DNA of 59,332 nucleotides from an uncultured Gammaproteobacteria bacterium. GTDB lineage: Bacteria; Patescibacteriota; Patescibacteriia; UBA1558; 2-01-FULL-52-15. The stretch spans positions 1 to 59,332 of the forward strand of contig CAYRBH010000006.1 of the NCBI GenBank assembly GCA_964422585.1, read 5' to 3'. This document shows, in pieces, positions 1-20,547 of this stretch (its first letter is position 1; every line of letters begins with the position of its first letter). The position numbers were made by a program, and so were the translations under genes. The notes below the pieces were generated by a model. The model saw only the letters and a list, made by a program, of their open reading frames with translations, was not told the origin of the DNA and made no database searches.

Positions 1-99
1 ACGTTGTACGCCATTGCCGGCTACGCAAAGTAAAGGTGGAAGACATCTAAAAGTTAGTTCATTAATAAAACACTGTGGGTTGGATGCGGAGGAAGAAAA

Positions 100-237
100 A
101 TGAGAAAGTTACTCACAAGGATTCAGGCTTGGGAAGACCGTACGTGGGCCTATCTCGCAGTTGGTGCAGTTGCCATAGCGTTTGGCATTATCGTCTCTGC
201 GTCTCTCTGGGGCGCAGGAGGAATCTGGAATCAGTGA
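100..237 (+). CDS. Small 45-aa single-TM protein (cassette 0), missed by the ORF track
   Basis: GGAGG at 88-92, ATG at 100, MRKLLTRIQAWEDRTWAYLAVGAVAIAFGIIVSASLWGAGGIWNQ. Confidence 0.55.
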   Translation: MRKLLTRIQAWEDRTWAYLAVGAVAIAFGIIVSASLWGAGGIWNQ

Positions 238-326
238 GAACAGCAAGAGACAGAAGAAACAACATCCAACCTTCTGTCTCCAACCCACAGTGTTGTATCG
301 CAGATTTCTACCTGGCCGTCAACAGC

Positions 327-584
327 GCACAACACCGCGTGTGCGGCTTCGCGTATGGCTTCCGCTCACACCACTCTGATATAGTTCTTTTCACTTCACT
401 GTTCAGAGAGATGAAGAAGCATGTCCTATACACTTAGCTTCTTCGTTCGCTCCAGGCCGCTTCGCCTACATCTGCGCGTGTTCTTTTGCGCTCCATTTCA
501 TTACGCGCATTGCATTTGCCCTCCGTATCCACTTCGGGCATAATGCTATCACGCGCAGACGTCGCATACGCACATACGTTAGAC
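327..584 (+). repeat. attC-like site 1 (258 bp)
   Basis: GCACAAC-ACC-GCGTGTGCG ... CGCATACGC-ACATAC-GTTAGAC. Confidence 0.8.
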
Positions 585-845
585 GCCATTCAAGGTGGGT
601 ACGTATCCTTACACAAAGCTCATGAGTAGAGCTTTCTTTTTGTTTTCAAGGGGTCTTGTCCTCTTTAGTTTAGAGTTGCTTTTGTTAGGATAGAGGCCAA
701 GGAGGGGAACAAAAAGAAAGCGAAAGAAGGTTATTTACTTGAGAAAAGGGTCGTCTCAAGCACCTTGAACACTGCGCCAGCCCCACACCACTTCCCTTTC
801 GTCCAGTAGTGTGGGGACGTTGCACTCTGGCTTGCCCTTCGGGGC

Positions 846-981
846 GCCTAACACCCGACTTGCGGCTACGCTCGGGTTGCACCACTCGCTTCGCCTACAT
901 TCGCACGTGCAGCTTGCGCTCCGTATCCACTTCGCGCTAAGCTTAGCACGTGCGAACGTCGCAAGTCGGTATACGTTGTAC
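846..981 (+). repeat. attC-like site 2 (136 bp)
   Basis: GCCTAAC-AC-CCGACTTGCG ... CGCAAGTCGG-TATAC-GTTGTAC; perfect 10-bp stem. Confidence 0.85.
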
Positions 982-1035
982 GCCATAGTGAAAAGTAAAA
1001 TAGTTTAGTATTTTAAATAATTACCGTTAAAAAAT

Positions 1036-1341
1036 ATGGCACTCAAGGCATGGTTCAAACCACCACTGAGTAAGTTTACACTGATGGTTTTTTTCTTTGT
1101 CTGCTCGGCCTTTTCTGTTTTCTACACTATAGGATGTATAGCAACATGTTCTGCGACTTTCGATAAGATTCTGGTCTCTATGTTTGTGGTCATAAGCGCT
1201 CCTGCAGCATTGATTTTGAAGTTTCCAGGCGTCTTCGGTGAGAGCACCTTGCCTTTATCCCTGTTACTGACCCCCGTTTATTGGTACTTTCTTGCCAGCC
1301 TGATTGTGTGGCTTTTTTCACAACGTAAGAAGTCAAACTAA
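1036..1341 (+). CDS. Hypothetical membrane protein (cassette 2)
   Basis: 101 aa, about 3 hydrophobic segments, fills the cassette. Confidence 0.75.
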   Translation: MALKAWFKPPLSKFTLMVFFFVCSAFSVFYTIGCIATCSATFDKILVSMFVVISAPAALILKFPGVFGESTLPLSLLLTPVYWYFLASLIVWLFSQRKKSN

Positions 1342-1381
1342 TACAAATTACTAGTTCGTTGCCATTACTTTTCACTACAGC

Positions 1382-1634
1382 GCACAACACCTGGTGTGCG
1401 GCTTCGCGTGTGGCTTACGCTCGCCTGTACTACAGAGGGCGAAGCTAGTTAAAGGGTTAGCTTTTAAGGAAGTAGACCTTATGTAAGGTAAGAGCTTCTT
1501 CGCTCGCTCCAGGCCGCTTCGCCTACATTGCTTGTCCGCGTGGATGCGGACTTGTAGCACTCCGTCTCCACTCCGTGCTATCATTATATCGCCCACGCGG
1601 ACTGCGCAACGTCGCATACGCATATACGTTGTAC
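1382..1634 (+). repeat. attC-like site 3 (253 bp, degenerate inner stem)
   Basis: GCACAAC-ACCTGGTGTGCG ... CGCATACGCATATAC-GTTGTAC. Confidence 0.75.
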
Positions 1635-1658
1635 GAAATTCAATAACCTTTTAAGACA

Positions 1659-2057
1659 ATGAAAAAAATCATCTCTACTTCTAAGGCGCCAGCAGCCCCG
1701 AAGTTACTTTCGCAGGCAGTTTTGGAGGATTCGAAATATCATTTGGAAATATCAGGGCAGATTGGACTCAATCCTGAAACAGGAAAGCTCGTTGAAGGTG
1801 GAGTTGAAGCTGAAATGAAACAAGCTCTACAAAATATCGAGGCGATACTTTCTGAAGTGGGCTGGACTTTAGAAAACGTAACAAAAGTACGTTTGTTTCT
1901 GACCGATATGACAGACTACGCTAAAGTCAACGAAATCTATATGGCTAAATTCACCCAAAACTTGCCTGCGAGAATTGCCCTTGCTGTAAAAGCACTTCCT
2001 TTGTCTGCTACTATCGAGATTGAATGTGTGGCTGCTGGTGATATTGCTAAAATGTAA
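1659..2057 (+). CDS. ridA: RidA/YjgF/YER057c family imine deaminase (cassette 3)
   Basis: SQAV, ISGQIG, QALQNIEAIL, LPAR and ALP..IEIEC motifs; conserved Arg present. Confidence 0.9.
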   Translation: MKKIISTSKAPAAPKLLSQAVLEDSKYHLEISGQIGLNPETGKLVEGGVEAEMKQALQNIEAILSEVGWTLENVTKVRLFLTDMTDYAKVNEIYMAKFTQNLPARIALAVKALPLSATIEIECVAAGDIAKM

Positions 2058-2079
2058 CTCGGAGAGGTTATTGAACTTC

Positions 2080-2232
2080 GCACAACACCGCGTATGCGGC
2101 TCAGGTGAGCTTCTTCTTTAGACTTCATTTATTGTAGGTCGCTCACCTTCGGCCTACATTCGCTGCTGGTATCACTCCTACCGTCGTGATATTATACCAG
2201 CAGCGAACGTCGCATACGCGTATACGTTAGGT
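2080..2232 (+). repeat. attC-like site 4 (153 bp)
   Basis: GCACAAC-AC-CGCGTATGCG ... CGCATACGCG-TATAC-GTTAGGT. Confidence 0.85.
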
Positions 2233-2282
2233 GAAATTTTTGAACCCCTAAATGGGGTTTTGTTTTTTGATCAATAGTGAAA

Positions 2283-2328
2283 GGGTCGCATCCTTCTTCG
2301 AGCTTAGCTCTAGGATAGGATGCGACCC
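2283..2328 (-). terminator. Hairpin downstream of the inverted cassette gene
   Basis: GGGTCGCATCCT ... AGGATGCGACCC 12-bp stem. Confidence 0.55.
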
Positions 2329-2340
2329 CCGTGATTGCGG

Positions 2341-2712
2341 CTACTTGCCGTGCTTCTTCTCGAGATTCGCGAGAACGCTCTCGACCTCGTTGACCTCGAT
2401 CGCGTCGCTCTTGGCCGGACGGTACCTGTTGTACTGGTCGACTGCGTCGGCGAGAACGCGGCGCGCCTCGTCGATCGAATTGACTTTGGTCGTCCTCTGG
2501 ACGAGAGGCGCTGACGAATTGAGAACCGTCTTCTGAATGTCGCCGACGACGACGCTGACGTTGTAGATCGGCCCGTTCTTCGAAGGGTTCTCGATGGCGC
2601 TGACCGTATAGGAGATGTTCTTGGAGGCAATCTTCTCCTCCATAGTGTCGCTGCAGGCGACCACCAGAGCCATCAAGAGACAAGGAACCACGAACCGCAT
2701 GAGCTTACCCAC
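2341..2712 (-). CDS. Hypothetical lipoprotein, inverted within cassette 4
   Basis: 123 aa, signal peptide with LVVAC lipobox, SD AAGGAAGG before GTG, GC-rich codons. Confidence 0.75.
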   Translation of the reverse strand: MGKLMRFVVPCLLMALVVACSDTMEEKIASKNISYTVSAIENPSKNGPIYNVSVVVGDIQKTVLNSSAPLVQRTTKVNSIDEARRVLADAVDQYNRYRPAKSDAIEVNEVESVLANLEKKHGK

Positions 2713-2761
2713 TGTTTCCCTTCCTTTCTCGGCATAGCCGAAGTGCGGACGTTAAGAAAAT

Positions 2762-2790
2762 AATATAACATATTTAAAAATTTGTGTCAA
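2762..2790 (-). promoter_or_regulatory. sigma70 promoter for the inverted cassette gene
   Basis: TTGACA-17 bp-TATATT on the minus strand. Confidence 0.7.
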
Positions 2791-2877
2791 TATCTACCAA
2801 AAAACAAAAGCATATTTCTATAGGTTTTATTAATCCTACTAACATAAAAGCTTGTTGAGAGGGGGTTCAAAAACATC

Positions 2878-3087
2878 ACCTAACACCGCGTATACGGTTG
2901 CGCCTTGTCTATCTCGTAGGTTGGAAACTAGATTAGTCCAAGACTTCTAGAAGACAAGGAACTAACTCATGGTTGCTCCACCTACATTCCCTTCCTCACC
3001 CCGCTGCTCTTGCCCTCCGCTCTCGCTTCGGGCATCATTATAGCAGCGGGGTTCGTCGGGAACGTCGCATACGCGTATACGTTAGGT
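2878..3087 (+). repeat. attC-like site 5 (210 bp)
   Basis: ACCTAAC-AC-CGCGTATACG ... CGCATACGCG-TATAC-GTTAGGT. Confidence 0.85.
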
Positions 3088-3105
3088 GAAATTTATCTCC
3101 TCATA

Positions 3106-3645
3106 ATGTCTTCTATCTCTACTAATTGGCATGTTGTAACTGGCGGGCCTTCGTCAGGAAAAACAAAGACTCTAGAGTATCTGTATGTTCTTGGGAACAC
3201 AATTGTCCCTGAAATGGCGAGAATGCTCATTGAAGATGAAATGATGACAGGGAAAACATTACAGGAGATACGACAACATGAGGGGAGTTTTCAAGAGCGC
3301 GTGTTGCAAATGAAAATAGAGACCGAGAACCAATTGGACCCACAAAAACATACATTTCTTGATCGAGGCATTGGAGATAGTATTGCATACTTTCGTCTGA
3401 ATTCTATGGATCCTCAACCTGTTTTTGAAGCATCAAAAAAGAGAATATATAAAACCGTATTTTTACTCGAACAACTTCCTTTTCAATCGGATGAAGCGAG
3501 AACAGAAAATGAAGACTCAGCCCGCCAGATCAGTGATTTGCTCTTTGAAGCGTACTCACAATTAAAATACAAAGTCATTAGAGTTCCCGTAATGCCTGTT
3601 CATGAGCGAGCGGTTTTTATTCTGGCGGAGATAAACATCACCTAA
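3106..3645 (+). CDS. Predicted P-loop ATPase, AAA_28/NadR-kinase-like (cassette 5)
   Basis: VVTGGPSSGKT Walker A and FLDRGIGD. The ORF-track extension to 3010 is attC sequence. Stop codon lies within R''. Confidence 0.85.
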   Translation: MSSISTNWHVVTGGPSSGKTKTLEYLYVLGNTIVPEMARMLIEDEMMTGKTLQEIRQHEGSFQERVLQMKIETENQLDPQKHTFLDRGIGDSIAYFRLNSMDPQPVFEASKKRIYKTVFLLEQLPFQSDEARTENEDSARQISDLLFEAYSQLKYKVIRVPVMPVHERAVFILAEINIT

Positions 3646-4259
3646 CACCGGATTGCCGATTCGCGAGCAAAAAACTTTTATAAAAGTAGCTAGTAAATAA
3701 AGCATCGTATGTTCATATCTGCCTACATAATAATCACTATCCTCATCATAACACTTGTTTTTCTATTACGAATGACAATAAGTACATTGGATGCCGTTCG
3801 TTGGTTAAACTTTAAAATAAATGTACTCGAACGATTGATTTACGAAAAAAAATTCGAACCTACCAAGAATGAGATTGAAAGCGCAGTAGATGCAACACTT
3901 GCTAACGATGTTGAGTACGCAGCAACAGTAAAAATGCTAAATAAATTTATTAAACGTGTTTATCGTAATAACGCCAGCAGTGGTCAAAAAACATTTAGGC
4001 ATATTATTGAGAAGAGGCTTGAAAACCCACAAAGCTACCAGATGGTGGCTATGGGTTTAATTAGTGCATCCGATGTCTATGAGACTACCGATATTTTTAA
4101 AGATGTGGATTTAGAGTCCGCGATCAAAAGATTTAAGGATAAATTTAAGAAGTGATTTTTTTGCTCGCTCATCCAAATTGCTTGTCCACTTAGCTGCTAT
4201 TTGAGATAATTATAGCAGCACGCGGACTGCGCAACTTCGGCAATCCGCATCCGTTAGGT
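3640..4259 (+). repeat. Giant attC-like site 6 (620 bp) enclosing CDS 3709..4155
   Basis: ACCTAAC-AC-CGGATTGCCGA at 3640 pairs with TCGGCAATCCG-CATCC-GTTAGGT ending 4259; no R'-type right half seen in between. Confidence 0.8.
3709..4155 (+). CDS. Hypothetical protein with N-terminal TM helix, nested inside attC site 6
   Basis: 148-aa open frame, AT-rich, flanked by 12-bp IR 3663-3674/4157-4168. Confidence 0.75.
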   Translation: MFISAYIIITILIITLVFLLRMTISTLDAVRWLNFKINVLERLIYEKKFEPTKNEIESAVDATLANDVEYAATVKMLNKFIKRVYRNNASSGQKTFRHIIEKRLENPQSYQMVAMGLISASDVYETTDIFKDVDLESAIKRFKDKFKK

Positions 4260-4300
4260 GAAATTTTTCAAAATCCCTTACTAATTAGGTCTTCATTAAG

Positions 4301-4714
4301 GTGAAAACAAGAGTAGTTGTAACCACCCTCATCGAAAAAGACGACCAGATTCTCTTCGGTAGGAAGAGGGTCAACGTTGGTCCTTATCCAAACACCTGGC
4401 ATTTGATTGGGGGCGGTGTTGAGGACGGAGAACCAGTCATTGAAGCCGTCAAGCGAGAGATCAAAGAAGAAGCCGGTATAGAAGTTGATCACATCACACC
4501 ACTAGGTTTCGACGAAGACTTCGAGCCGAATAAGGACGGCGAGATAACCCATTATATATTCCTAATTTTTCAGGCTCACTACGTCTCTGGTAAGTTACGA
4601 CCTGATGACGACATTGAGCATCTCGAATGGATTCCTAAGAGTAAACTAGCAACACTGGAACTTAATAGGCCAACGATTAAATATTTTAAAAAGGTGGGTT
4701 ATCTCGCCTCGTGA
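4301..4714 (+). CDS. NUDIX hydrolase (cassette 6)
   Basis: Nudix box GGGVEDGEPVIEAVKREIKEEAG. Confidence 0.9.
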   Translation: MKTRVVVTTLIEKDDQILFGRKRVNVGPYPNTWHLIGGGVEDGEPVIEAVKREIKEEAGIEVDHITPLGFDEDFEPNKDGEITHYIFLIFQAHYVSGKLRPDDDIEHLEWIPKSKLATLELNRPTIKYFKKVGYLAS

Positions 4715-4744
4715 CTATTCAATGGAAGGATTTTGAAAAACATC

Positions 4745-4934
4745 ACCTAACACCGCGTATGCGGTTGCGCCTTGTCTATCTCGTAGTCTCAATTCTAGAT
4801 TAGTTCAAGACTTCTAGAAGACAGGGAACTACTCATGGTGGCTCCACCTACATTCGTGCATGCAGCTTGCGCTCCGTATCCACTTCGCGCTAAGCTTAGC
4901 ATGCACGAACGTCGCATACGCGTATACGTTAGGT
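4745..4934 (+). repeat. attC-like site 7 (190 bp)
   Basis: ACCTAAC-AC-CGCGTATGCG ... CGCATACGCG-TATAC-GTTAGGT. Confidence 0.85.
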
Positions 4935-4952
4935 GAAATAATAAAAAATCAA

Positions 4953-5591
4953 ATGATTTTAGTAGAAATAATAATTTCTTTAATTTCTTCACTCGCTGCA
5001 ATACTGATATCTCTTTGGATTGATAGATTGCGACTTCCTAAATTATCTATTAAGGCTAGCGAAAGTGCTAACTCTGACAATATATATCCTTCGGGTCACC
5101 CGCACGCTAACGAACGATGGAAATTTTTTAGGGTTTCTGTTTCTAATAATTCTTTTTCTGGTTTATTTCGATGGATACCCCGCCAAACAGCTGAGAACTG
5201 TAGAGCAAAAATAGAGATTTATGAATCTAAGGACTCATCGCCCCTGTTTACTTTTGATGGTCGATGGGCATCAACGCCAGAAATTCCTCACATTCCTTCA
5301 CAAGCAATAGTTAAGTTATTTCACCCGGATCCAGTAACCATTGCGGTCGAGGAAAAAGAATACCTGGATGTTATTGTCAAAGCCGAAATTGATAACGATG
5401 CTTATGGCTGGAATAATGAAGCCTACATACACAACTGGAGAAACCCTAGCTATAAACTTGGCATTGGAGAATATAAAGTTAAAATAACCATTTCAACTCA
5501 AAACGGAAAATCGTTCGTTAGCGTGCTCGACTTAGCAGTTCGAAAAAAGACTGAAGACACCATACTTAAAAATAACAGCTTGTCGGCTTGA
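4953..5591 (+). CDS. Hypothetical protein with N-terminal membrane anchor (cassette 7)
   Basis: 212 aa from ATG 4953; the upstream ORF-track extension is attC sequence. Confidence 0.75.
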   Translation: MILVEIIISLISSLAAILISLWIDRLRLPKLSIKASESANSDNIYPSGHPHANERWKFFRVSVSNNSFSGLFRWIPRQTAENCRAKIEIYESKDSSPLFTFDGRWASTPEIPHIPSQAIVKLFHPDPVTIAVEEKEYLDVIVKAEIDNDAYGWNNEAYIHNWRNPSYKLGIGEYKVKITISTQNGKSFVSVLDLAVRKKTEDTILKNNSLSA

Positions 5592-5605
5592 TTTTTTATT
5601 ACATC

Positions 5606-6326
5606 ACCTAACACCGGATATCCGGCTTCGCCAAAAAATATAAACAATTTTATTCCAAAGATATGAAAAAAATATTAATTATTCCACTATTCATTCTCAT
5701 TCTGGGCGGCTGTTCAAATCAGAACGCAAAAATTGACGAACAAAACAAAAAGATTGATGAGTTGAATAACAAAGTCACAGAATTAACTGCATCCAATAGT
5801 AAAAGTGACTTAGATCTTCAAGCTAAGTGTGCCACCCAAGCTCAAAAGGCTTTCGAAGACTTTAAAAAAAGTTACGCAGACTCACAATATTATTCGTATG
5901 CGCAAGAAAGCCACTATAACAAAACGTATGACAGGTGTTTTGTGCTAGTATCTTATTTAGTGAACTCTGGTCCTGTCTATAACGGAAAACCGTTCAGGCA
6001 AGCAACAAATGGAGAAGATCTATTGGATGCATACGGTAATAGAGATTTAGCTTCTTGCGAAATATTTGGCAACGACATACCAAACAACCAAACATGTATT
6101 GTAGAAGGAAATGGCGCAACCTATAAAGACTACACCGATTACGTCGTTCCGAGGCTAGAGTTGCCGCCCCAAAAATAGTGTTAGCAGAAAAAATAAAATT
6201 GTTTATATTTTTGGCTCGCGCAAATTGCTTGTCTGCTTAGGCGGTGGGTAGCGCTCCGTTGGGCTTCGCGCTACAATTATACCGCCACGCAGACTGCGCA
6301 ACTTCGGATATCCGCCTATGTTGTAC
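5606..6326 (+). repeat. Giant attC-like site 8 (721 bp) enclosing CDS 5663..6178
   Basis: ACCTAAC-AC-CGGATATCCG at 5606 pairs with CGGATATCCG-CCTAT-GTTGTAC ending 6326. Confidence 0.8.
5663..6178 (+). CDS. Hypothetical lipoprotein, nested inside attC site 8
   Basis: MKKILIIPLFILILGGC lipobox followed by a coiled coil; 171 aa; flanked by 24/25-bp IR. Confidence 0.8.
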   Translation: MKKILIIPLFILILGGCSNQNAKIDEQNKKIDELNNKVTELTASNSKSDLDLQAKCATQAQKAFEDFKKSYADSQYYSYAQESHYNKTYDRCFVLVSYLVNSGPVYNGKPFRQATNGEDLLDAYGNRDLASCEIFGNDIPNNQTCIVEGNGATYKDYTDYVVPRLELPPQK

Positions 6327-6374
6327 GAAATTGGCTTTCCTTAGATTATATATTAGTAAATTAACATCTTTTCT

Positions 6375-6608
6375 ATGACACTTGCAAAAATAATAGCTCT
6401 GAGCGGGATCATCCTCTTTATAGCAGGGCAAGTATTTGCTAACGTTATTCATCCTAATACCAGTGGTGGCGCTGAATTTGCAGGACTCGTCTTCCTTGTA
6501 GCCTTTTATGGCGGCATTGCACTTTTCATTATTGGCGCGATGATAGGTGTTTACAAAAAACCACAAGGTCAGCGCAATCAAAAAAAGGAACCAACTCAAC
6601 AGAACTAG
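6375..6608 (+). CDS. Small 2-TM membrane protein (cassette 8)
   Basis: 77 aa, two hydrophobic helices, basic tail, fills the cassette. Confidence 0.7.
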   Translation: MTLAKIIALSGIILFIAGQVFANVIHPNTSGGAEFAGLVFLVAFYGGIALFIIGAMIGVYKKPQGQRNQKKEPTQQN

Positions 6609-6630
6609 AAACGAACGGAAAGCCAACTTC

Positions 6631-6811
6631 GCACAACACCGGATATGCGGTTGCGCGAGGCTTTGAGAGGGTGGTAGACTAGATACTGTTCTTACACTAT
6701 CTAGAAGTATAGGGATTTCTCATGGGGCTCCACCTACATTTGCGGGTGGTAGCGCTCCTCCGTCGCGGGATCATACCACCCGCAAACGTCGCACATCCGT
6801 ATACGTTAGGT
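6631..6811 (+). repeat. attC-like site 9 (181 bp)
   Basis: GCACAAC-AC-CGGATATGCG ... CGCACATCCG-TATAC-GTTAGGT. Confidence 0.85.
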
Positions 6812-6837
6812 GAAATAAGTTATTTGTTTGTTAGGCA

Positions 6838-7335
6838 ATGAACTTAGTAGCATACAACCCAGAGTGGGAGAAAATTTTTCTGACAGAGAAGGAAACAATC
6901 GCTCAAGCTCTCGGCAATGACTGCCTCGAAATTGAACATATAGGTAGTACAGCCATTCCTGGTATTCTTTCAAAACCAATTGTTGATATAGCTGTACGCA
7001 TACCCTCTCTCAAGGCCAGCGAAAAATACTTAGCCCCTCTTCAGGCTATAGGGTATACCTACTTTCCAGAACGATCATCTGTTGAGCGAATGTTCTTAGC
7101 GAAAGGAGTTCCTCCAACGCTTCACTTATCACTGACGGAGTCAGAAAAATTTTCTTATTGGAAACGACAAATACTTTTTCGAGATTACTTACGCTCACAT
7201 GCAGATATTGCCAAAGAATACGAAATACTTAAAGCAAATCTTATTCAAAAATATCCGGATATTAGTCAGGGTTATTCTGATGGGAAAGGCGAATTTGTTA
7301 AAAAAGTTCTTTCTCTCACAGAAACAAACAAATAA
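6838..7335 (+). CDS. GrpB/UPF0157 family protein (cassette 9)
   Basis: YNPEW, IEHIGSTAIPG..SKPIVDI, LFRDYLR and Y..LK..L..Y..GK motifs. Confidence 0.9.
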   Translation: MNLVAYNPEWEKIFLTEKETIAQALGNDCLEIEHIGSTAIPGILSKPIVDIAVRIPSLKASEKYLAPLQAIGYTYFPERSSVERMFLAKGVPPTLHLSLTESEKFSYWKRQILFRDYLRSHADIAKEYEILKANLIQKYPDISQGYSDGKGEFVKKVLSLTETNK

Positions 7336-7343
7336 CTTACATC

Positions 7344-7363
7344 ACCTAACACCGCGTATGCGG
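7344..7363 (+). repeat. Left half only of attC-like site 10 (array end)
   Basis: ACCTAACACCGCGTATGCGG, then 7 bp and the stop of a convergent host gene; no matching right half seen. Confidence 0.75.
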
Positions 7364-7370
7364 CGCTGAT

Positions 7371-8159
7371 CTACTTATACATAACCAGTCCAACCGCTCC
7401 TCCATCAGCAGCAGACCCTGTCCAATCATGTATCGCACTCATTAAGGTAGCAGATGAGTACACATAATCAGCGCCGTGCTTTGTACCCGGGTCATTGGTA
7501 ATGAATGTACCGTCCGCCCTATAGCCTTTGATAACCAGCATGTGATAGATAGGTCCTGGAGCCGTGAAATACGGATTGCCTAATGCACGACCAGCTGTTG
7601 GTACTATCACTGGCAAACCCTTTCGTAATTCTTGTTTGATAGCATCAATGGTCAACGGATCAATAATCTGCACTCTGTAGGGATACTGAGCGGCAGCAAG
7701 ATCCTTAACTTTCGCGATCGGCAGATCATTGTGTCCGCCCCAATTCTTAATCTGCCAAGCGACCTGCGCGTCGATAGCATCTTTCATCTGCTGCGCTGAG
7801 AGTGTCGCGCCACGCAAATAATAATCGACCATGATAATGGAGGCCTCTTCACAGGCATTCTCATACGGTTCGCTCCAATCGCCGAATGGCGCCTGTGCAC
7901 GGAACGGCACCGCTAAATTAATGGCGTTCGGTGCTGGTTTCTCAACCGGCGGCTTCTGCTCTGGAGTTACTGTAGCCTGAGAATTCTTGGCCGAAGGAGG
8001 GGGTACCGGAGGATTCGGCTTTGCTGGTTCTACAACGGGTACGGTTGAGGTCGCGAATGTAGCGAAAGGCTCAGGCGACGGAATAACCGCCTGGGGCATC
8101 GTAGTACAGCCGGCAAGCAGGGCAAACACCGCTACCAGTAAACTATATCGTTTCTTCAT
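7371..8159 (-). CDS. C39-like peptidase lipoprotein
   Basis: LLAGC lipobox; VPFRAQAP..NACEEAS, HMLVIKGY and TNDPG motifs. Confidence 0.8.
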   Translation of the reverse strand: MKKRYSLLVAVFALLAGCTTMPQAVIPSPEPFATFATSTVPVVEPAKPNPPVPPPSAKNSQATVTPEQKPPVEKPAPNAINLAVPFRAQAPFGDWSEPYENACEEASIIMVDYYLRGATLSAQQMKDAIDAQVAWQIKNWGGHNDLPIAKVKDLAAAQYPYRVQIIDPLTIDAIKQELRKGLPVIVPTAGRALGNPYFTAPGPIYHMLVIKGYRADGTFITNDPGTKHGADYVYSSATLMSAIHDWTGSAADGGAVGLVMYK

Positions 8160-8212
8160 GCGACCATGATAGCAATATTCGGCATTCTCGCAAAGCATAG
8201 CGCCTGCGAGGC

Positions 8213-19779: not shown

Positions 19780-20547
19780 ATGGCACGAAACATCGATACC
19801 GCGCTGACACAATTCTGCATCTATCTCAAACGAACAAAAAAGAGCTCGGATCTGACCATCACTCACTATCGCGAGTATTTACGGCGTTTCTTCGAATCAC
19901 AAAAGATACTAACGGCGAGCAACATTACTTCCCGAAAAGTCGAACTCTTCCAGAAAGAGCTGAAAGCTGCCGGACTACAATCAACCACTCAAAATTATTA
20001 TCTGATAGCATTACGCGGCTTCATCCGCTGGCTGCCGAACGATGAACGACGACTGTCTTATCGATCCATAGCTTTGACTCCGATACAGTATCGCTCCCCT
20101 GCCTCCCTGCCGAAGCACTCGATCAACGCTCTCCTGAAAGAACAGCTCAGCGCTATGAATGCAAATCCATTGAGCCTCAGAGATCGGGCTATTCTTGAGC
20201 TGCTCTGGAGCACCGGACTCAAACTCTATGAGCTTCCGCGGCTTACTATCGAAGGATTCGACCTCAAACGAAAACAGCTGAGCATCGCCGGGTCACATCC
20301 ACGCACGATCAAACTTACTACTCACGCACACTACTACCTGAGTGAATATCTCAAGCTGCGGCAGGATCAGAATCCGTATCTGTTCATCAGTCATGACCGG
20401 GCTGGCACACAGCGTGGCGCAGGCACATCTATGAGCACACGTTCCATACAGCGCCTCATCACCAAACACAGCAGGCGCGCGGGTCAAGGGCGCAGCGTTA
20501 CTGCCCGTACCATACAGCGCGCTCGGGCAGCAGAGCCTCTCTCCTGA
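19780..20547 (+). CDS. XerC/XerD-like tyrosine recombinase homolog, apparently catalytically degenerate and C-terminally truncated
   Basis: SAM-like N-terminal domain, RDRAILELLWSTGLK (R to K); HxxRH replaced by RTIQR; ends before the catalytic Tyr. Confidence 0.75.
   Translation: MARNIDTALTQFCIYLKRTKKSSDLTITHYREYLRRFFESQKILTASNITSRKVELFQKELKAAGLQSTTQNYYLIALRGFIRWLPNDERRLSYRSIALTPIQYRSPASLPKHSINALLKEQLSAMNANPLSLRDRAILELLWSTGLKLYELPRLTIEGFDLKRKQLSIAGSHPRTIKLTTHAHYYLSEYLKLRQDQNPYLFISHDRAGTQRGAGTSMSTRSIQRLITKHSRRAGQGRSVTARTIQRARAAEPLS

Follow-up and report, generated by a model that had tools for sequence, protein, structure and literature searches.

The locus at the start of this contig raises a basic question: are the large hairpins between its small genes the recombination sites of an integron, and, if so, which enzyme acts on them? 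The window, i.e., the whole stretch of 59,332 nucleotides analyzed here, is an entire contig, and its positions 1-7363 form an array of ten gene cassettes with large hairpin sites between them, bounded on one side by a site that the contig start cuts and on the other by a half-site (7327-7363). We read this region as the distal part of an integron-type cassette array in a CPR (Patescibacteria-like) chromosome, a reading to which we assign a probability of roughly 0.65 and in which the exchange, the enzyme and attI are inferred. The initial annotation had likewise proposed an integron-like array in a probable CPR genome. To judge by protein similarity, a CPR origin is plausible but not proven: the closest ComM relatives are mostly from Patescibacteria MAGs (identity of at most 54%), and a DUF5671 protein is encoded in the window.

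The sites are found on the + strand only. Ten left arms end in YAAC, and ten right arms begin with GTTAGGT, GTTGTAC or GTTAGAC. The left arms (YAAC, AC and stem) have the C of AAC at 333, 852, 1388, 2086, 2884, 3646, 4751, 5612, 6637 and 7350, and the right arms (stem, 5 nt and GTT) have the G of GTT at 3, 578, 975, 1628, 2226, 3081, 4253, 4928, 6320 and 6805. They delimit nine complete AAC…GTT hairpin sites of 128-713 nt, with lengths of 250, 128, 245, 145, 202, 612, 182, 713 and 173 nt for sites 1 to 9. When the two 7-nt boxes are included, the lengths become 258, 136, 253, 153, 210, 620, 190, 721 and 181 bp, which reproduces exactly the nine complete sites of 136-721 bp, and their places, listed in the initial annotation.

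The array opens with the remnant of the cut site (1-14), composed of the spacer end and the R' box GTTGTACGCCAT (3-14), which is also the start of cassette 1. Cassette 1 (4-578; ends complementary at 17/24 positions) contains a 45-aa membrane ORF (100-237) and site 1 (331-580; L stem CGCGTGTGCG/CGCATACGCA). Cassette 2 (579-975) has no convincing ORF and a long internal inverted repeat at about 625-725; its site 2 (850-977; L stem CCGACTTGCG/CGCAAGTCGG) is the shortest. A 101-aa membrane ORF (1036-1341) occupies cassette 3 (976-1628; 21/24), in which the L stem of site 3 (1386-1630) is degraded, and a RidA/L-PSP ORF (1659-2057) occupies cassette 4 (1629-2226; 21/24), which ends in site 4 (2084-2228; L stem CGCGTATGCG/CGCATACGCG). 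Cassette 5 (2227-3081; 21/24; site 5 at 2882-3083) bears an ORF on the minus strand (2341-2712, 123 aa), with 57.8% GC. In cassette 6 (3082-4253; 19/24), an AAA_28 ORF (3106-3645) is followed by site 6 (3644-4255; L stem CGGATTGCCGA/TCGGCAATCCG at 3649-3659/4237-4247), whose inner stem (3658-3674/4157-4173) encloses a second ORF (3709-4155, 148 aa). Cassette 7 (4254-4928; 22/24) carries a NUDIX ORF (4301-4714) and site 7 (4749-4930). Cassette 8 (4929-6320; 22/24) is organized like cassette 6: an ORF of 212 aa (4953-5591), from a family with 135 homologues, precedes site 8 (5610-6322; L stem CGGATATCCG at 5615-5624/6305-6314), in which a perfect 21-nt inner stem (5634-5654/6192-6212) encloses a second ORF (5663-6178, 171 aa) with an N-terminus resembling a lipoprotein signal. 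A 77-aa membrane ORF (6375-6608) and site 9 (6635-6807) make up cassette 9 (6321-6805; 20/24), and a GrpB ORF (6838-7335) lies in the last one, cassette 10 (6806-7363; 22/24). The terminal half-site (7327-7363) comprises an extended R'' arm, AAC (7348-7350), AC and L'' CGCGTATGCGG, lacks a right arm and abuts the 3' end of a C39-like peptidase gene on the minus strand (7371-8198). This truncation of the last site is not predicted by our model and counts against it.

How well do the arms support the proposed folds? Six of the nine sites have a fully paired stem of 9 bp or more, with 2 unpaired nt on the left and 5 on the right; sites 1, 3 and 5 have mismatched stems and were rejected by this strict filter, and with this qualification the geometry of 2 versus 5 unpaired nt described from the sequence alone holds. 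In the arm alignment, 93% of the cells are paired, compared with only 24-38% in slid registers, and 13 of 24 pairs have changed on both sides. None of 500 shuffles attained the observed covariation of the R and L stems, and the covariation claimed earlier is thereby supported. The L-stem arms align without gaps over 12 columns (92.6% paired) and contain no bulged base, in agreement with the earlier observation that the L stem has no extrahelical base; the only surplus bases are 3 nt beside GTT, which read AAC or TAC. The R stems are ~22 bp long with a fixed CA/TT mismatch, and two sites (6 and 8) enclose entire genes. We consider the site anatomy and its covariation to be demonstrated. The sites are also specific to the array: the motif TTRKRYGAAAT occurs seven times, always within it, against an expectation of 0.57, and a generic site caller returned six sites on the + strand of the array versus one in the remaining 104 kb (both strands). 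A custom arm model based on 30 CPR sites matched only the right arms.

The next question is where one cassette ends and another begins. Of the 24 nt that precede each AAC, 17-22 are complementary to the 24-nt stretch following the previous GTT, and pairing of the left flank with the GTT flank of the same site reaches 8-17 of 24. Folds with the R' of the cassette's own start are 1-13 kcal/mol better than those with the genomic neighbor. The integron-type boundary criterion, namely, that R'' matches R' at the start of its own cassette, is met, and since the left flank is complementary to the preceding GTT flank, we infer that cassettes are exchanged at G|TT. Cassette-specific end pairing is also seen in a related CPR locus (L212), where the ends of the first cassette pair at 24/26 positions, CA/TT mismatch included, and in a Treponemataceae array. 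The genes are typical accessory genes (RidA, AAA_28, NUDIX, GrpB), and their GC content varies from 34.5 to 57.8%, versus 49.3% in the backbone. The cassette logic is thus a demonstrated property of the array, and the integron-like character proposed initially is borne out.

The same data show whether the hairpins could be something other than recombination sites. RNA-level structures (terminators or stabilizers) or REP/MITE-type selfish repeats between genes would fit the position downstream of genes, the strong structure and the semi-conserved inner hairpin. However, the outer arm pairs across the whole upstream gene and not with the adjacent flank, all copies share a single orientation and form a single block, homologous sites adjoin recombinases in other genomes, and no Rfam family matches the sites. 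Moreover, the bottom, non-coding strand folds more stably than the transcript-sense strand by 3.7-11 kcal/mol in all seven sites folded; the bottom strand of attC is likewise reported as the more stable fold (PMC5027507). We give almost no credence to this explanation.

If the hairpins are recombination sites, are they ordinary attC sites? As in canonical integrons (classes 1-5 and Vibrio superintegrons), small, mostly co-oriented accessory genes stand in tandem, and behind each lies an imperfect palindrome bounded by RYYYAAC…GTTRRRY; exchange at G|TT is indicated by cassette-specific complementarity; recognition appears to be structure-based, with an L-box sequence that is free yet covarying; the bottom strand is the more stable one; and, in relatives, an attI-like site lies beside the recombinase gene. 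Canonical attC sites are 57-141 bp long, have an unpaired central spacer of 5-6 nt per arm and possess 2-3 extrahelical bases near L'', located on the arm opposite AAC in the bottom strand and contacted by the I2 helix (PMC5027507). In contrast, the spacers of the window are 2 nt and 5 nt (1-2/4-5 nt when relatives are included), and only site 2 falls inside the canonical length range, while others reach 713 nt and two contain genes. The gap-free L arms do not meet the extrahelical-base criterion: the 3-nt surplus sits on the GTT arm, i.e., the AAC-bearing arm in the bottom strand, opposite to the canonical arrangement. The R stem of ~22 bp with its fixed mismatch also contrasts with 7 bp in canonical sites. 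Therefore, the earlier description of the sites as non-canonical and oversized is justified.

Nevertheless, the locus could belong to a sedentary chromosomal integron of the ordinary kind or to a CALIN (a cluster of attC sites without an integron integrase) in decay, with a canonical I2-bearing IntI encoded just outside the contig or in another part of the genome and sites of a divergent flavor that the standard model would still score. The RYYYAAC/GTTRRRY-like boxes and the AAC and GTT triplets are present, a large Treponemataceae array is made up of closely related sites, Spirochaetota are among the established hosts of integrons, CALINs are common, and integrons are split by draft assemblies. 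Such a reading is unlikely in our view, given spacers and lengths outside the published canonical ranges, the lack of the extrahelical bases contacted by the I2 helix, and the features of the enzymes of related loci considered below.

Searches for these components in the window were largely negative. No functional recombinase was found among the scanned ORFs of the 59 kb (one ORF batch was left out), and no attI-like site of the type seen in relatives was present in the window. A degenerate, truncated Xer-like ORF was detected at 19780-20547, 12.4 kb from the array, scoring 31 bits on TIGR02249, whose cut-off is 265; the earlier statement that no integrase is in view remains correct for a functional enzyme and has to be amended for this remnant. 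With nine attC-like sites (at least two are required) and no functional integrase found among the scanned ORFs, the array satisfies the IntegronFinder criterion for a CALIN, but this depends on accepting the sites as attC. The criterion for a complete integron (an adjacent integrase with PF00589 and the intI_Cterm region) is not met within the window, which does not cover the sequence upstream of position 1. The window resembles a CALIN in having at least nine sites with no integrase within reach; unlike in a true CALIN, the lack of an integrase is probably due to the assembly, as the contig begins within a site. The recombinase of the array is not visible here because the contig breaks off within the array.

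Is the site class peculiar to this genome? A scan of GTDB representatives for the right-arm frame AACGTCG-N11-ACGTTRKRYGMMAT gave at least 116 matching stretches, many of them from Patescibacteria and Spirochaetota. One such match in Kerfeldbacteria proved to be a 10-site array, and another, a large array in Treponemataceae, displays the same CA/TT mismatch and a cassette-specific R extension. In every group, the right spacer exceeds the left by 2-3 nt in most sites; effective spacers are 1/4 in most CPR relatives because the outermost stem pair is intact there and mismatched in the window. The site class is thus not peculiar to the window genome but widespread among CPR and Spirochaetota. The Spirochaetota integrons (integrase gene reversed) share with the window the right-arm frame AACGTCG…ACGTTAGGYGAAAT, the CA/TT mismatch, an R stem that is extended and cassette-specific, and several inner motifs; they differ in having sites of about 130-165 nt, spacers of 4/6 or 4/7 and a recombinase with an N-terminal extension of about 100-135 aa. 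In two spirochaete loci (L096 and L174), the recombinase lies upstream of the cassettes on the same strand.

To identify the accompanying enzymes, 80 loci from the right-arm-frame scan (of the at least 116 stretches) were searched by phmmer with the Spirochaetia enzymes as queries. Seven of these 80 loci gave tyrosine-recombinase matches, which were partial, weak or Xer-like except for one CPR and two Spirochaetia enzymes. These three enzymes scored 175-218 on the integron-integrase profile TIGR02249 (cut-off 265), in two separate stretches only, and the insertion specific to IntI is missing from the two recombinases, one from CPR and one from Spirochaetia, that were aligned to VchIntIA. Both observations speak against an ordinary integron and are in line with the divergent recombinase inferred initially. 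In a Patescibacteria MAG (L110), the recombinase gene runs divergently from an array with window-like sites; its product aligns with VchIntIA as two segments, with 13 aa in place of the 56 of IntI4, and the Spirochaetia enzymes follow the same pattern. The L110 gene has a frameshift ahead of the catalytic Tyr, which counts against our model. The occurrence of the same site class beside recombinases in other genomes is nevertheless demonstrated.

A conserved attI-like site (TTCGCATAAWAACGA|GTTAT) was found 98-129 nt upstream of a ~270-aa IntI/XerA-like recombinase gene in all eight CPR loci examined; arrays begin at this site, with divergent cassettes present in five of the loci, and in two others the contig instead ends within 20 nt of GTT. 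The ~270-aa family is very large and annotated as XerD, and its gene has housekeeping neighbors in two or more loci: L210 carries def and fmt next to it, and in L214 its 3' end is overlapped by a radical-SAM gene. The enzyme could therefore be a general Xer, which again counts against the model. Could the cassettes, then, use a housekeeping Xer at a dif-like site, as the CTX phage does, with the 'attI' being the chromosomal dif? The attI-like site TTCGCATAA-N6/7-TTATATGAAAT is similar to E. coli dif (GGTGCGCATAA-TGTATA-TTATGTTAAAT), the recombinase scores as XerA/XerC/XerD, the gene neighbors in L210 and L214 fit, and dif is likewise kept beside the gene in the XerS and XerH systems. However, GC skew does not change sign across the site (-0.11/-0.11 in L212, -0.15/-0.15 in L213, -0.07/-0.04 in L210), and the site is therefore not at the replication terminus; the downstream neighbors vary from genome to genome, and the N-terminal domain of the recombinase matches IntI4 well (86 bits). 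We regard such exploitation of Xer as very unlikely. The CTX-phage IMEX (XerCD, folded single strand) is similar in that a folded hairpin mimics a Xer site with two arms and an imperfect center, the R' arm TTAGGTGAAAT resembles a XerD arm, and the recombinase is Xer-like; it differs from the window, with its many small cassettes in one orientation and free L-box sequence, and from the relatives, whose platform is not at a skew switch. Phage functions are absent. The pdif modules of Acinetobacter plasmids also consist of genes between Xer-type sites, and pdif sites are 28-bp, double-stranded, of alternating orientation and without large hairpins. This type was rejected, as the window sites are palindromes of 128-713 nt, all in the same orientation.

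For the preferred integron-type reading, we propose the following mechanism. A cassette would begin with the TT of one GTT, finish with the G of the following one and comprise one or two genes and its own folded recombination site. In the single strand, this site would consist of an R stem of ~22 bp formed with the cassette's own start and interrupted by the fixed 2-nt mismatch, an asymmetric junction with 1-2 nt in the AAC arm and 4-5 in the GTT arm, and an L stem of 10-12 bp, free to vary in sequence, with a branched tip on top. In two cassettes, the tip would contain a whole gene shut off by extra stems; very long sites probably recombine poorly, and their cassettes would therefore be relatively fixed. 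Exchange at G|TT would be catalyzed by an IntI/XerA-like tyrosine recombinase without the I2 insertion, not by a canonical IntI, and attI would be of the TTCGCATAAWAACGA|GTTAT type, ~110 bp upstream of the recombinase gene. All three elements (exchange point, enzyme and attI) are inferred. The platform of the window genome would lie beyond position 1, at the assembly break inside the array. Several further points count against this model: the window has no recombinase or attI of the proposed type, and their role here is inferred from genomes that are not closely related; homologues of one cassette gene occur without such flanking sites in three loci (L092-L094); and there is no evidence of activity (no circles, no strain comparison for the species), mobility being inferred.

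The array is real and looks like a new integron variant, and our literature search found no paper on such a system. Whether the window belongs to a class of integron-like platforms that is widespread in CPR and Spirochaetota and as yet undescribed is a proposition that we consider evenly balanced; it holds that an IntI/XerA-like enzyme without the I2 insertion recognizes the hairpins not by extrahelical bases but by the 3-nt AAC bulge together with an 11-bp arm of Xer type, with tips able to carry whole genes. If true, this class of platforms would be either a living relative of the transition from Xer to IntI or an independent route to single-strand cassette capture.

On the plus strand, positions 1-7363 carry ten left arms (YAAC, AC, stem) and ten right arms (stem, 5 nt, GTT), whose pairing gives nine complete attC-like hairpin sites, one right arm truncated at the start of the contig and a left arm without a partner (7327-7363). 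This left arm forms the right end of the array and lies 8 nt away from the stop codon of a gene for a C39-like peptidase; in L212, a related locus from another genome, the last site is complete, unlike the terminal half-site found here. Measured from AAC to GTT, the lengths of sites 1-9 are 250, 128, 245, 145, 202, 612, 182, 713 and 173 nt, and the nine sizes listed in the initial annotation were reproduced exactly when two 7-nt boxes were added. The motif TTRKRYGAAAT is present in seven copies, all within the array (0.57 expected), and a generic hairpin caller reported six sites on the plus strand of the array versus one in the other 104 kb (both strands). An Rfam search of the array region, using gathering and E-value thresholds, returned no relevant match.

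A key question is which segment constitutes the exchangeable unit. Across the gene, the 24-nt segment preceding each AAC is complementary to the 24-nt segment that follows the previous GTT at 17-22 of 24 positions, while the match with the flank of the site's own GTT is much weaker (8-17/24). Because the flanks pair across the gene, each unit that starts with the TT of one GTT and stops at the G of the following one is self-contained, and a circularized cassette would close a long outer (R) stem. The alternative that the mobile units are the structured elements, inserting into palindromic targets, is ruled out, since the flanks do not pair across the element. As judged from the sequence, the complementarity across the intervening gene places the putative exchange point at or adjoining GTT, as in integron cassettes. 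Positions 10-11 of the R stem form a fixed mismatch, in which CA (left) opposes TT (right).

Folding of the seven sites shorter than 400 nt as single-stranded DNA revealed one common architecture: the R stem is followed by an internal loop, whose AAC arm has 2 nt and whose GTT arm has 5 nt, and then by an inner (L) stem (10-12 bp). The tip is branched and includes a semi-conserved hairpin adjoining the L' arm, with a loop of approximately CTCCGTATCCACTTCG. The cassette's own R' arm gave folds 1-13 kcal/mol better than those with the genomic neighbour. The bottom strand was more stable than the top strand in 7/7 folded sites, by 3.7-11 kcal/mol; a bottom-strand stability bias has likewise been reported for attC sites (PMC5027507). 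Fold stability points to the bottom strand as the candidate for exchange, but the position of the surplus bases corresponds to that in canonical top strands. When the arms were aligned in a fixed register, 93% of cells paired and 13 of 24 pairs changed on both sides; none of 500 shuffles reached the observed values, and slid registers paired only 24-38%. The L arms align without gaps, and therefore no extrahelical base is present. Thus, the three structural features read from the sequence in the initial annotation, namely, the 2-nt/5-nt asymmetry, the covariation of the stems between sites and the lack of an extrahelical base in the L stem, were all recovered.

The L boxes of sites 6 and 8 (CGGATTGCCGA and CGGATATCCG, respectively) are unique and match perfectly, which argues against fusion of two different sites. 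In site 6, an inner stem of 17 nt with 88% complementarity brackets a complete ORF (3709-4155), and in site 8, an inner stem of 21 nt with 100% complementarity brackets another (5663-6178), whose predicted N-terminus reads, untested, like a lipoprotein signal. These extra inner stems look like the outcome of selection to keep the hairpin closable, and whole genes in site tips would extend the known tolerance of structure-specific recombination sites.

A covariance model built from 30 non-window arms of CPR (Patescibacteria) loci with a collapsed loop found no whole site in the window, even with filters off, and matched only the right arms (E 1e-4 to 0.06). This failure reflects the limits of the model and is no evidence against the sites. 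Each right arm (e.g., 2197-2237) holds its own pseudo-site, GAAC-GT-CGC…GCG-TATAC-GTT, to which the model aligned in place of whole sites, and the palindrome AACGTT straddles the presumed crossover in these arms.

The cassettes encode RidA, AAA_28, NUDIX and GrpB products, several small membrane proteins and proteins of unknown function, and their GC content ranges from 34.5 to 57.8% (backbone, 49.3%). One gene (2341-2712, minus strand) is inverted, unlike all other cassette genes; with a GC content of 57.8% versus 35-45% in its neighbours, it looks like a recent acquisition from a higher-GC donor. The start of its product reads like an N-terminal signal sequence, and an AT-rich stretch upstream may represent its own promoter. 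Cassette 2 (noted over 579-849) is the one cassette without a convincing ORF and may be an ORF-less cassette with a structured RNA or a promoter; an inverted repeat within it, CTTTCTTTTTGTT…AACAAAAAGAAAG, is long but imperfect. Of three window-derived proteins looked up in databases by exact sequence, two cassette proteins had no record, and no such sites were found in the contexts of three homologues of a 212-aa cassette protein. The closest GTDB relatives of the backbone ComM (identity of at most 54%) are mostly Patescibacteria MAGs, and a DUF5671 protein is encoded in the window, which makes a CPR origin of the contig plausible; the earlier assignment to a probable CPR genome thereby gains support but remains unproven. 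No arrays were found at the 80 loci examined around ComM relatives, and a syntenic comparison was therefore impossible.

Is the recombinase serving this array present in the window? Since the window is an entire contig, the array runs off its left end. The sole tyrosine-recombinase-like ORF found (19780-20547, plus strand, 255 aa; the scan left out a few large ORFs beyond 39.5 kb) is truncated, with an intact N-terminal SAM-like domain and degenerate catalytic motifs (TGLKLYEL vs TGLRxSEL). As an integrase it was rejected, given its 22% identity to the ~ 270-aa family of IntI/XerA-like recombinases of CPR loci, an R-to-K change in the first motif, the loss of HxxR and termination ahead of the catalytic Tyr. 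It is probably a pseudogene or an inactive paralogue. A GGDEF-like gene lies downstream. The initial remark that no integrase is in view thus holds for functional enzymes among the scanned ORFs but overlooked this degenerate Xer-like ORF. A search of the window for the attI-like motif that is conserved upstream of recombinase genes in related loci detected none. The right-hand half-site was rejected as an attI because it lacks the attI consensus and the cassette genes of relatives point away from attI, so that the attI of the window would lie to the left.

We searched for this class of sites in other genomes. Two narrow DNA patterns had no match in GTDB representatives, and a degenerate right-arm pattern retrieved related sites in metagenomes and in a Treponemataceae MAG with a very large array. 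The Treponemataceae sites (~ 130 nt) have in common with those of the window the AACGTCG…ACGTTAGGYGAAAT frame, a cassette-specific R extension, the CA/TT mismatch and several inner motifs. In a fermentation metagenome contig (ENA UOOK01001506, locus L084, 7335-8031), two related hairpin sites surround a single small cassette, and this mini-array lies between the BREX-like (PglZ, methylase) and SIR2-HerA blocks of a defence island. The two outer R boxes of this mini-array match, which is what the entry of a single cassette into a lone pre-existing site would produce. A broader pattern yielded at least 116 matching stretches in GTDB representatives; among the matches listed, many belonged to Kerfeld-, Magasanik-, Peregrini-, Gracili-, Sacchari- and Parcubacteria and others to Spirochaetota, Paenibacillaceae, Planctomycetes and a few archaea, and one Kerfeldbacteria contig carried ten sites in 8 kb.

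The two spacers are asymmetric in every group: in the majority of sites, the one next to GTT exceeds the one next to AAC by 2-3 nt, and the surplus bases are AAC or TAC, directly 5' of GTT. Expressed as AAC side/GTT side, the commonest combination is 1/4 for CPR sites and 2/5 for window sites, with 4/6 or 4/7 prevailing among those of Spirochaetota and Firmicutes. The median site length is 93 nt in CPR versus 202 nt in the window, so that the window sites are long even within their own class. Canonical attC sites have spacers of 5-6 nt per arm, lengths of 57-141 bp and 2-3 extrahelical bases, located on the arm opposite AAC in the bottom strand (PMC5027507); compared with these, the class found in the window has shorter spacers, no L-stem bulge and its surplus bases on the other arm.

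Phmmer searches of the ORFs of fetched loci revealed recombinases directly upstream of arrays in two Spirochaetia and two CPR contigs. In L110, a locus of a Patescibacteria MAG, the recombinase gene is divergent from a four-site array in which 2/4 sites have window-like L boxes. The protein aligns with the integron integrase VchIntIA (IntI4; 2a3v) in two pieces, with 13 residues where IntI4 has 56 (186-241), and scores approximately equally against XerA, Pyrococcus Xer and IntI4 (127-130 bits); its gene is interrupted by a single frameshift upstream of the catalytic Tyr codon. The same alignment gap recurs in a Spirochaetia enzyme (18 aa vs 60). Both the L110 protein and the Spirochaetia enzymes score below the cut-off of the integron-integrase profile, which they match in two separate stretches. 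The CPR family is very large, with members of ~ 270 aa annotated as XerD, tyrosine recombinase or, occasionally, "integron integrase", and the spirochaete relatives (~ 390-400 aa) are annotated as XerD. That the ~ 270-aa recombinase is a housekeeping Xer remains a live alternative: at L210 (10001-12263), a further such locus, its gene is directly followed by overlapping def and fmt on the same strand, operon-like with housekeeping genes.

The attI-like sequence (A)TTCGCATAAWAACGA|GTTAT..GAAAT was present in 8/8 further CPR contexts, 98-129 nt upstream of the recombinase start, and in five of these eight it accompanied divergent small-gene arrays with hairpin sites. An identity of this site as a terminus dif is disfavoured by the GC skew, which shows no sign change at the site in L210, L212 or L213. 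Two independent contigs end shortly after the attI-like GTT, L215 (1-121) after 20 nt and L218 (1-120) after 4 nt, which suggests that assemblies break at this point owing to variation of the first cassette among co-existing strains. The attI-like GTT of L212 marks the start of the first cassette, whose ends pair at 24/26 positions, CA/TT mismatch included. In two further loci, the 15-20 nt after the attI GTT (e.g., TTATATGAAATTCCGAACC) recur behind the GTT of the final site (L213, 9891/7776; L214, 9902/7265), and the whole array is therefore flanked by direct repeats.

We conclude that the window holds the distal portion of an integron-type array built from this site class. Its recombinase is most likely an IntI/XerA-like enzyme without the IntI-specific insertion (I2), encoded beyond the contig end, an inference drawn by analogy with genomes that are not closely related and without evidence of activity in this genome. 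In canonical IntI, the I2 helix contacts the extrahelical bases (PMC5027507), and the absence of extrahelical bases in the window sites fits the absence of this helix. An extra domain defines the integron integrases and is described as necessary for activity in the title of Messier & Roy (2001), and the standard detection tool discards recombinases without it. If insertion-less enzymes serve such arrays, integron surveys would miss a whole branch or file it as orphan CALINs (attC clusters without an integrase). Our literature search found no description of such platforms in CPR. These bacteria have tiny genomes and are thought to be poor in gene-acquisition machinery. If the proposed reading is true, CPR bacteria would own a dedicated cassette-capture system, and the evolutionary step from Xer to IntI would become testable with natural enzymes and sites.
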